Position numbers and translations under genes: made by a program
Shown here: positions 8,389-11,266 of the stretch, piece by piece
Position numbering within the stretch: position 1 is the stretch's first letter
Layout of the letters: the number at the start of each line of letters is the position of its first letter
Assembly (NCBI GenBank): GCA_965203555.1
Contig: CBDBCY010000004.1
Location: 1,952,001 to 2,016,000 of the forward strand
Source: Acidimicrobiia bacterium
Lineage (GTDB): Bacteria > Actinomycetota > Acidimicrobiia > Spongiisociales > ZC4RG35
Length of the DNA: 64,000 nt
Direction: 5' to 3'
Notes under the pieces: generated by a model
Databases searched by the model: none
What the model was told of the DNA's origin: nothing
Seen by the model: the letters and a program-made list of their open reading frames with translations, nothing else

Positions 8389-9540
8389 GGCTGCGCGTTT
8401 TTGTGGGGAGCAGGGTTTAGGGAGGGGTCCTTGGTTAGGGGTTGAGGCCTCGCTGGAATAGGTGGTGTAAGCGAATCGCCTATCCAGGAGGCCTCGATGA
8501 ATGATGTTATGTCGGTCCGGTTGCACCTGCGTGGTGTGAGGGTGACCGAGGTGATGGTTGACACCCTCACAGAGCTGGTGGTGGGAGTTGTTTCGGTGAA
8601 AAAGCTGTCCTTGTGTCCCTATTGTGGTCGGTCCTGCCGGCGGGTGCACGACCGGCGTCAGCGGCGGATCCGCGATCTGGAAGTGAGTGGACGTTTGACC
8701 GTGCTGTTGTGGATCCAGCGACGGTACGTATGCGATGGGTGCGGGAAAACGGCACATGGAAACCCACCCCCAGTTTCTGGGCGGTATAACGCGTCGCCTG
8801 GCCCGCCGACTGGTCTCATCTGATCCGAACCCGGCGGCGCCGACAGAGATGCCGGGTGCTTCTGATCGACGAAACATCGATCAGGAAACGCCACCGCTAT
8901 GTGACCGTGATCGCCAACGGCGACACCGGCGAGATACTGTCCATGTTCCCCGGACGCTCCAAACAAGCCTTGAGCAGGTTCTTCATCGAACAGGGACCCC
9001 GCTGGTGCCAGAACGTGCAGACCGTGGTCTCAGACGGTTCCCGCTCCTATCAGGCGGCCATAGTCCGCTACCTTCCTTCGGCCCGTCATGTCCTGGACCG
9101 GTTCCACGCCGCTCGCCGGTATCACCGAAGGTCTCACCCTGGATGCGCCGGGACCTGCAACGCCAGCCGCCAGGCGTCAAACCCGCCTGGCGCCCGGATC
9201 TGTTCCGCGCCCGGTTCGTGCTCCTCAAGAGAAGGGACCATATCACCCCAAAAGAGCAGAAACGTCTCAAACGGCTGTTCGAGGCGTATCCGCGTCTGCG
9301 GATCGCCTGGGACGCTCTGCAACAGCTCTACGGCCTGTACGAGGCCAAAGACCTCCCCACCGCGCTCGAGACCCTGGAACGGTTCGTGAAACTGTACGAA
9401 ACCGGCCAGATACCCGAGTACTACCACACCGTAAACACTGTCCTCAACTGGTCAAACGAGATCCTCAACTGGCACCACACCCGACGCTCCAACGGACCCC
9501 TGGAAGGTATCAACAACCTCATCCACTCATACTTATAGGT

Positions 9541-9721
9541 GCCCCTGGGCCGGGGCGGGTCTGACTCCAACCTAACCTGGCCTGTTTGTGCCTTTGGTTT
9601 GATTTGTCGGCCTGCTTCCGGCCTGGGGGCGGCGCTCTCCCGACAGGGCGGCTGTGACCTGATAGGAGCCTTGCTCTTGCCACTTGAGTGGTCCGTCCAC
9701 CGCCTTTTCGGGTCAGGGAGA
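9541..9721 (+). ncRNA. Putative IS110 bridge RNA (target-binding and donor-binding loops)
   Basis: Stem 9541-9630 encloses CAACCTAA and GGTTTG, which match the target. Stem ~9636-9721 encloses ATAGGAGC and TGAGTG, which match the donor junction. Confidence 0.85.
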
Positions 9722-9754
9722 ACAGAACCGATTCTAAATGAGGAGAAGAGACGA

Positions 9755-10969
9755 ATGTCAGATCGGGTTGATGTGTTCGGTGGGGTGGACACCCACCGCG
9801 ATGTTCATGTGGCGGCGGTGGTGGATACCACCGGTCGGGTGTTGGGCACGGCATCGTTCGGAACCGACACAGCCGGTTATGAACAACTGGGCAACTGGCT
9901 GGGGTCACACGGCAACGTTGCCCAGGTCGGAATAGAGGGCACCGGCAGCTACGGCGCCGGCCTGACCCGCTACCTGGTGAGAATCGGTGTCGAGGTAGTG
10001 GAAGTGAACCGTCCCAACCGTCAACTGCGCCGCCGGTTCGGCAAGACCGACGCCACCGACGCTCAGGCCGCGGCCCGGGCTGTTTTGAGCGGACAGGCCA
10101 CCGGGACACCCAAAAGCGGCGACGGACCAGTCGAAGCGATCAGGATGCTTCGGGTGGTCCGCCGTTCGGCCGCCAAGGCCCGCACCCAGACCATCAACCA
10201 GCTGCACGCTCTGGTGGTCACCGCTCCCGACCAGGTCAAACACCAACTCGGGAGCCTTTCCCCGAAAGCCCGGGTGAAGGTCTGCGCCGCCTATCGTCCC
10301 GGCGCGAACCGGACCAATATCGCCTATGCCAAGAAAGCGTTGCGTCTGTTGGCCCGCCGATACCAAGCACTTACCTGGGAGATCCAACAACTCGACACCG
10401 AAATCAAACAGCTCTGCGCCCGGGCCAACCCGGCGCTGCTGGCTGCCGGTGGGATCGGCCCCGAAACCGCCGCCGCGCTGCTGGTCACCGCCGGGGACAA
10501 CCCCCACCGCATGCGCACAGAAGCGTCTTTCGCCGCTCTCTGCGGCGCAAGCCCCGTCCAAGCGTCGTCGGGACGCATAGTGCGTCACCGACTCAACCGC
10601 GGCGGCGACCGCCAAGCCAACAACGCCCTCTGGCGTATAGCCACAGTACGGCTACGCACCGACCCCCGCACCATCGAATACGCCCAACGGCGACAAGCCG
10701 AAGGCAAAACCCGCAAAGAGATCATCCGCTGCCTGAAACGCTACATCGCCCGCCAGGTCTACCGACTGCTGACCAACCCGAACCAAACACCCAACGGCAG
10801 CGATCTACGCTGCCTACGCCAAAAAACCCAAACAACTCTGGCTCGCGCCGCCATAGCCCTCCAAACCCACCCAAACCGCCTCTCACAACTCGAACGAGGC
10901 CTCTACCACAACCACCAACTCGCCACCCAATACCAACACTGGCTCACCACCCCCCAAACCCCAATTTGA
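9755..10969 (+). CDS. IS110 DEDD recombinase with C-terminal XRE-like HTH extension (404 aa)
   Basis: GGVDTH, GIEGTG and KTDATDA (DEDD); Tnp domain PVQASSG and HRLNRGGDRQANNAL; RBS AGGAGA before ATG 9755. Confidence 0.95.
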   Translation: MSDRVDVFGGVDTHRDVHVAAVVDTTGRVLGTASFGTDTAGYEQLGNWLGSHGNVAQVGIEGTGSYGAGLTRYLVRIGVEVVEVNRPNRQLRRRFGKTDATDAQAAARAVLSGQATGTPKSGDGPVEAIRMLRVVRRSAAKARTQTINQLHALVVTAPDQVKHQLGSLSPKARVKVCAAYRPGANRTNIAYAKKALRLLARRYQALTWEIQQLDTEIKQLCARANPALLAAGGIGPETAAALLVTAGDNPHRMRTEASFAALCGASPVQASSGRIVRHRLNRGGDRQANNALWRIATVRLRTDPRTIEYAQRRQAEGKTRKEIIRCLKRYIARQVYRLLTNPNQTPNGSDLRCLRQKTQTTLARAAIALQTHPNRLSQLERGLYHNHQLATQYQHWLTTPQTPI

Positions 10970-11266
10970 CAAACATAGGAGCATCAAACCCTCCGGCGCA
11001 CCGCCCACGGGTTCACCAACACACACAACTACGCTGCCCGAGCACTCCTCCTAACATGAACCCCACCACCTACCAGCCAGACCACAATCCCATAAATACG
11101 CGCAGTGCCCAAAAAGTGAACTTATGCAGACCATGGAGCACCATCCGCAAGACTGCCGTGGCTGCTCCGCTCTACTCAGTAGGGAGCGGCGCACAACTCG
11201 CAACCTCCACAACCTTGATAACACTTATCGCCCGACTACCGCATAGTCCATTGGCGAATGGCACAT

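Follow-up and report, generated by a model that had tools for sequence, protein, structure and literature searches.

A putative bridge RNA-guided IS110 element from an Acidimicrobiia bacterium and the crossover base of its clade

Known bridge RNA systems and the element in the window

The closest described system is IS621 from E. coli with its bridge RNA and recombinase (Durrant 2024, PMC11208160; Hiraizumi 2024, PMC11208158); here and below, statements on known systems refer to those parts of the cited publications on which we draw. According to these accounts, the two bases located 3' of each right guide of the RNA pair with the partner DNA upstream of the core after top-strand exchange (PMC11208158, PMC13626964). 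Such handshake bases upstream of the core are also described for ISCro4 / IS622, which recognises 14 bases (bioRxiv 10.1101/2025.05.14.653916; PDB 9t56). The elements of the IS1111 group belong to the same protein family and follow the same guide logic, and their RNA is encoded in the right end (PMC11208160). Predictions of bridge RNAs extend to thousands of IS110 elements (PMC11208160) and the class has been widely mined, so that one more member is unsurprising in itself.

The window analysed here, a stretch of 64,000 nucleotides from an Acidimicrobiia bacterium, contains on its + strand a 1461-bp IS110-family element (one copy of the crossover C counted) that is inserted within an ISL3-type transposase gene (Table 1). 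The element possesses a non-coding left end of 231 nt (9524-9754) and a right end that extends 15 nt past the stop codon (10970-10984), a combination of long non-coding left end and short right end that is characteristic of the IS110 group. Since the RNA lies in the left end, unlike in the IS1111 group, and the right end lies within 15 nt after the stop codon, we assign the element to the IS110 and not to the IS1111 group. We consider it highly probable (about 0.93) that window 9524-10984 is an IS110-group insertion sequence whose left end encodes a bridge RNA, the guides of which direct insertion beside a single shared C. The value of the locus lies in its being fully resolved, since a single genome contains both empty and occupied sites as well as three identical copies and two diverged sisters with other guides.

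The element resembles IS621 in that a long left end encodes the RNA and two hairpins with internal loops are present; where IS621 has a promoter split across the circle junction, a candidate promoter can be read in the joined ends of the element. Handshake dinucleotides 3' of the right guides and the order of the linkers are likewise the same, as is an effective left target guide of 9 nt, a length that we adopt because the first guide position seldom pairs in the relatives. In contrast to IS621, no separate 5' stem-loop is predicted ahead of the target hairpin, the right target guide comprises 6 nt (4-7 in IS621), and an inner stem of the donor loop is little developed or absent in part of the clade. 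Moreover, the left guide appears to occur in two registers, and a single base, C, appears to be shared in place of the CT dinucleotide of IS621. The same architecture is found in ISCro4 / IS622, to which, unlike the element described here, a CT core and tests in human cells belong.

The recombinase of 404 aa matches the Pfam families DEDD_Tnp_IS110 (PF01548, 9.2e-26) and Transposase_20 (PF02371, 1.4e-18), and it scores 202.6 bits, against a cutoff of 140, with the NCBIfam model NF033542 'IS110 family RNA-guided transposase'. Its sole relatives of solved structure found by phmmer are IS621 (8wt6_A, E = 3.5e-11) and ISCro4 (PDB 9t56, 6.4e-10); the similarity is low, and the alignment with chain 8wt6_A consists of two local stretches. 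In this alignment D12, E61, D99, D102 and S272-G273 face D11, E60, D102, D105 and S241-G242 of IS621, which were named catalytic (PMC11208158). As in IS621, a DEDD RuvC-like domain is hence combined with a Tnp domain whose serine aligns to the catalytic one. In contrast to the solved IS621 chain of 328 residues, it carries a C-terminal extension of about 65 residues (window 10776-10966) past the part aligned to IS621. It is plausible, judged from its sequence, that this putative recombinase is a new programmable one, as the original prediction had proposed.

The genome (3.4 Mb in 4 contigs) harbors two further copies of the element with 100% identity, one with 87% and one with 72%, as well as several fragments, and the full identity of the three identical copies spans 1425-1462 bp. 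The insertion site is carried by five ISL3 copies in this genome, three of which are occupied and two empty. Both empty copies are uninterrupted and read ...CAACCTCATC-CAAACC..., with the left target stretch identical to that beside the element. Comparison of the empty with the occupied ISL3 sites gives a circle junction that reads ...ATAGGAGCAT-CACTCAT.... The target and the donor that had been reconstructed from the window are thus correct, the former being borne out by the two empty and three occupied ISL3 copies and the latter by the comparison between them. The flanks of the element encode a Zn_ribbon_ISL3 domain and two pieces of DDE_Tnp_ISL3 in different frames.

The host ISL3 transposase gene (window 8497-9523) is itself broken by at least one frameshift. 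In the third 100% identical copy, the 3' end is interrupted at element position 1425 by a 2287-bp insertion (C4:2912924-2915210). Two long ORFs lie in this insertion, of which the second encodes a GPPGVGKT Walker A motif. The terminal inverted repeats of the insertion are imperfect and come with internal repeats, and there is a duplication of 4 bp, CACC. We take it to resemble an IS21-family element.

Table 1. Positions, in the window, of the element, its target and donor sequences and the parts of the predicted RNA
Feature	Position	Strand	Basis
Left target (LT), CAACCTCATC, in the ISL3 transposase gene	9514..9523	+	8/10 against the left target guide
IS110-family insertion sequence	9524..10984	+	Empty sites and homology end in relatives
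Crossover C, left copy (c1)	9524	+	Sole base common to donor and target across the family
Right donor (RD), CACTCA	9524..9529	+	Paired by the right donor guide
Candidate -10 box CATACT, used only in the circle junction	9528..9533	+	CATAAT in several relatives
Target-binding hairpin (TBL): outer stems, internal loop, inner 3-bp stem-loop	9541..9631	+	Fold and covariation
Left target guide (LTG), CAACCTAACC	9568..9577	+	Flank match and relatives; linker U at 9578
Right target guide (RTG), GGTTTG	9596..9601	+	Pairs top strand C-AAACC 10985-10990, 6/6
TBL handshake dinucleotide AT	9602..9603	+	Complementary to donor -2, -1 (AT 10983-10984)
Donor-binding hairpin (DBL): long outer stem and GAC/GUC clamp	9640..9712	+	Fold and arm duplex energies
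Left donor guide (LDG), ATAGGAGC-C-T-T	9662..9672	+	Window sequence and relatives
Right donor guide (RDG), TGAGTG	9685..9690	+	Window sequence and relatives
DBL handshake dinucleotide GT	9691..9692	+	G complementary to target -1 (C9523)
IS110 recombinase gene, 404 aa	9755..10969	+	Pfam, NCBIfam and PDB matches
Candidate -35 box TTGACA, overlaps the recombinase stop codon	10966..10971	+	TTGACA or a close variant kept in relatives' right ends
Left donor (LD), ATAGGAGCAT	10975..10984	+	Sequence and relatives' right ends
Crossover C (right copy) and right target AAACC	10985..10990	+	Sequence and empty sites

Fold and guides of the left-end RNA

The left end is predicted to fold into two hairpins whose internal loops hold the four guides. 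The minimum free energy (MFE) of the region amounts to -103.3 kcal/mol compared to -88.2 +/- 5 kcal/mol for shuffled sequences (z = -3.0), and none of 200 shuffles folded as well. Within the target-binding hairpin, GGC at 9579-9581 pairs with GCC at 9590-9592 to form the inner stem, and this 3-bp stem is changed from GGC/GCC to GAC/GUC in five sequences. Among 29 non-identical relatives, 94.5% of the cells of 21 consensus pairs in this hairpin are paired, with 44-55% in slid controls, and 12 of the 21 pairs show compensatory changes on both sides; none of 500 shuffles reached any of these measures, although the common ancestry of the relatives means that such stem statistics overstate independence.

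Misalignment of the variable arms kept RNAalifold from recovering the donor hairpin when it was run on all 249 columns of the alignment. The arms of this hairpin were instead assessed by duplex energies with non-cognate controls, and the cognate duplexes of the outer arms average -18.0 kcal/mol (n = 37 distinct) versus -12.8 kcal/mol for the non-cognate ones (n = 1294). In many relatives and in the MFE fold of the window, the LDG bases GGAG can pair with a CUCC/CUCU-like stretch within the donor loop (window 9655-9690), and a sub-clade with short donor loops has no inner stem. A search of window 9300-11200 against Rfam 15 with E values up to 10 matched no family, which is to be expected only if bridge RNAs are uncurated there.

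For the comparison of guides with flanks, we used 80 loci of relatives with 48-84% protein identity, most of them from metagenome-assembled genomes of Acidimicrobiia. The left ends of the relatives were located by nhmmer and then aligned, and the right ends were located next. This resulted in 45 loci with both borders defined by homology, which carry 24 distinct target loops, and the 552 pairings among these loops served as the non-cognate control for the target guides. Left out before the counts were 17 of 62 parsed loci, in which the left border was extrapolated or a flank missing (L003, L021, L024, L025, L053, L056, L059, L060, L069, L073, L075, L077, L079, L081, L083, L092 and L097). As judged by eye, the right guides of two of these excluded loci, L083 and L092 from Rhodococcus, match at 6/6 positions, and L024 combines a right guide of 6/6 with a left guide of only 5/10.

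In the window, CAACCTAA (9568-9575) agrees with CAACCTCA (9514-9521) at 7 of 8 positions. Over its full length, the left target guide matches its own left target in the ISL3 gene at 8/10, with mismatches at -4 and -2, and GGTTTG at 9596-9601 is the reverse complement of CAAACC (10985-10990). When the relatives are included, at least 7 of 10 positions of the left guide match the element's own left flank in 23 of the 24 loops (22 before two longer loops of 11 and 12 nt were corrected) compared to 21 of the 552 non-cognate pairings. The right guide reaches at least 4 of 5 variable positions in 20/24 loops and 15/552 non-cognate pairings, and both thresholds together are reached in 20/24 versus 5/552. 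The target guides thus covary with the left target on the bottom strand and with the right target on the top strand.

One of the 24 target loops, that of L022, fails at its own site (left 3/10, right 2/5), and L042, the second site of the L019 loop, is mismatched as well (4/10 left, 2/6 right). The L022 site is of the type used by another family, that of the L032 loop. Both misfits could stem from recombination between a resident and an incoming element, that is, replacement, or from insertion at a half-matching site. L076 and L080 have a left guide that matches the left flank at 9/10 and a right target guide that complements their own left end (CACACA) instead of the right flank, for which 3/6 positions match when the C is counted.

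The same correspondence is apparent among the diverged copies in the window's own genome (n = 3), whose right guides GGTTTG, TGGTGG and TGCCAG stand beside the flanks CAAACC, CCACCA and CTGGCA. The window copy and its 87% sister differ in their right guides, each of which fits its own site, and the left target guide of the window copy fits perfectly the site type that the 87% sister occupies; the sequences of the two copies suggest natural retargeting. Within two mismatches of the 16-mer that is specified by both target guides, the 3.4-Mb genome contains the ISL3 sites only, and by sequence match the ISL3 site is the best available in this genome, with two mismatches to the left guide.

These two mismatches raise the question of whether the window copy is a dead relic with guides that no longer function. 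Such a reading would also agree with the finding that contigs of three DNA runs (one study) contained no circle junction, joint or excised form, a search in which contigs cannot show absence. A relic is, however, hard to reconcile with three copies that have remained 100% identical, with an open frame of 404 aa that retains D, E, D, D and S at the positions corresponding to the catalytic residues of IS621, and with a right guide that matches its own site at 6/6. We therefore regard a relic as improbable.

The donor side was compared with the circle junction. ATAGGAGC at 9662-9669 is identical to positions 10975-10982, TGAGTG at 9685-9690 is the reverse complement of CACTCA (9524-9529), and in total the donor guides of the window match the junction at 9/10 (left) and 6/6 (right). 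The left donor guide matches the donor at positions 1-8 and 10. Position 9, a C, U or G, is always mismatched with the A at donor -2; base 10 pairs with donor -1, and the crossover C can be faced by base 11, which is U or C. Since the donor ends are nearly invariant, with the same right end in 22 of the 24 loops, covariation of the donor guides rests on single families. In the L076 family, a left end that reads CACACA is accompanied by the compensatory right donor guide GTGTG, and the same family has TT in the donor and AA as handshake.

The handshake dinucleotide AT of the target-binding hairpin faces AT of the donor in 22/24 loops. In the donor-binding hairpin, the first handshake base (G9691 in the window) is complementary to target -1 in 23/24 loops, as against 212/552 non-cognate pairings, and the second is complementary to target -2 in 17/24 loops. 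By complementarity, both dinucleotides could thus pair with the partner DNA after strand exchange.

This covariation bears on a further explanation, according to which the left end serves solely as a 5' leader, regulating expression of the transposase by attenuation or translation control, and its complementarity to the flanks is incidental. The position of the RNA directly upstream of a ribosome-binding site and the ATG at 9755 would suit a leader, as would the ability of the left donor guide to self-fold in the MFE structure. Yet in 20-23 of the 24 independent target loops the loop sequence follows the flanks of its own element, which is not so for the non-cognate pairs, and the handshake bases covary with the partner DNA. 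As a leader-only role predicts none of such covariation, we consider it very improbable.

The covariation of guides with flanks, of handshake bases with partner DNA and of the stems argues for an IS110-type bispecific bridge RNA, as put forward in the original prediction. Its further statements on the RNA agree with our analysis: the fold (z = -3.0) supports two hairpins at about the predicted coordinates with an inner GGC/GCC stem, and the sequence check placed all four guides where they had been predicted, with the predicted matches. The recognised stretch, expected to be about 16 bp, comprises about 15-16 bp. Folding and covariation across homologues, on which the prediction had made its case depend, show that stems and guides covary, with guide and target doing so in 20-23 of the 24 loops.

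Crossover base and left-guide registers

The donor has an A directly after the crossover C. In the targets, this position is occupied by A in 6, C in 6, G in 7 and T in 5 of the 24 loops, and it pairs with the right target guide in 23/24 loops. The preceding base is T in the donor; in the targets, C, A, G and T were found in 11, 10, 2 and 1 loops. All 45 loci that have a right junction read GGAGC(A/G/T)TC there and then a variable base. At the left junction, a variable base precedes CACTCA or a close variant of it. The base after C is invariably that of the donor at the left junction and that of the target at the right junction.

Empty sites were available for three families. Those of G001 read ACTGAAATC-C-GATGAGCC (or the GAAGAGCC variant) in 15 of 16 sites, those of G002 read CACTTGCAA-C-CACCGATGG in all 35 sites, and an empty site in the window's genome reads CAACCTAACC-C-CACCA. 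Since the base after C in these three families differs from that of the donor, only one C is common to donor and target. For the window copy on its own, donor and target could share CA at most. No dinucleotide shared by donor and target and pairing with all four guides was found in the clade, and the CA core of the original prediction is contradicted by the free base after C in the 24 target loops and by the single shared C in the empty sites of the three families. As a candidate for the window copy, we also considered a TC core comprising -1 and C. It predicts GGAGCATCCAAACC at the right junction, where the sequence reads GGAGCATCAAACC, and was rejected.

The single C might nevertheless be only apparent if the core were an ordinary dinucleotide, CA or TC, with mismatches that are tolerated and always repaired in one direction. 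In IS621, the cuts in the bottom and the top strand lie several bases apart, and mismatches may undergo excision and repair (PMC11208158); in addition, the window copy has CA on both sides. What speaks against a dinucleotide core is that the base after C differs between donor (A) and target in 18/24 loops, that the junctions are consistently one-sided, including all 12 sites of the L032 loop, and that the donor T at -1 stands against C, A or G in 23/24 targets. Furthermore, the RNA bases that face -1 behave as handshake and not as core-binding bases. We regard a dinucleotide core with one-way repair as possible but doubtful.

With regard to the left guide, two positions relative to the crossover are apparent. 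The tenth base pairs with -1 in 8 loops, the window's included, where the linker U could wobble with C (register A). In 15 loops, the partner of the tenth base, which is nearly always a C, is the crossover C (register B). Both registers are confirmed by empty sites, A by those of G001 and B by those of G002, and the length of the RNA is the same in both; a single common register of the left guide, which we had considered, is contradicted by the G001 and G002 sites. The donor loop follows the register in which the tenth base pairs with -1. In register B, inspection by eye of the linker base against the base after C revealed pairing in about 6 of 15 loops and hence no signal.

The view that the left guides stop short of the core does not apply to the target side, where guides of the relatives pair up to -1 (8 loops) or C (15 loops); matches per position continue through position 10, and the guides often match at 9-10/10. 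The apparent stop of the left target guide in the window results from an imperfect ISL3 site that the guide fails to match at two positions, -4 and -2, which makes the window copy an outlier. On the donor side, a left guide that ends at -3, as originally proposed, agrees with the conserved mismatch of the left donor guide at -2 and disagrees with its renewed pairing at -1.

We give an even chance to a model in which C is the only fixed crossover base throughout the clade, the next base is freely chosen via the right target guide, the handshake guides alone read the two bases before C, and the same scaffold supports two registers of the left target guide one base apart. A literature search by term found no paper on a single-nucleotide core of a bridge recombinase; this clade may be listed in the supplementary data of Durrant 2024. 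The clade offers comparative evidence for a one-base core and two left-guide registers and thereby bears on the design rules of programmable recombinases. If true, a one-base core would constrain the target sequence less than the CT/GT core of IS621 and IS622, and two registers would imply that the geometry between left guide and cleavage site is more flexible than the IS621 structures suggest. Judged by its sequences, the clade could be a variant of interest.

Proposed life cycle and related target loops

Transcription, binding of the RNA by the protein and catalysis are modelled here on IS621. The element would excise as a circle, in which the joined ends set TTGACA of the right end 17 nt ahead of CATACT of the left end; in sequence, the two motifs with their 17-nt spacer align once the ends are joined and are conserved in the relatives. 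Transcription may start at about 9538-9541 and would yield the bridge RNA followed by the recombinase mRNA; a search of sequencing runs matched the sequence in three DNA runs of one study and in no RNA run. As sequence and covariation show, the first hairpin is laid out to read the target and the second to read the circle junction via the left (9662-9672) and right (9685-9690) donor guides. Recombinase dimers on both loops would bind target and donor, and the DEDD/Ser recombinase would exchange strands adjoining the single shared C, whereupon the handshake guides, the two bases after each right guide, would pair with -2 and -1 of the partner DNA after top-strand exchange. Strand exchange at the shared C would have placed the element between ...CAACCTCATC and CAAACC... 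of the ISL3 gene.

A different kind of target is specified by the target loop of L026 (and L021), which contains the left target guide CTTGACAAAC and a right guide complementary to CATAGA. The site at which this loop aims, TTGACAAA-C-ATAGGAGC, is the right end found in related IS110 elements. L026 itself sits in such an IS110 right end and is thus an IS110 element that targets the ends of other IS110 elements.
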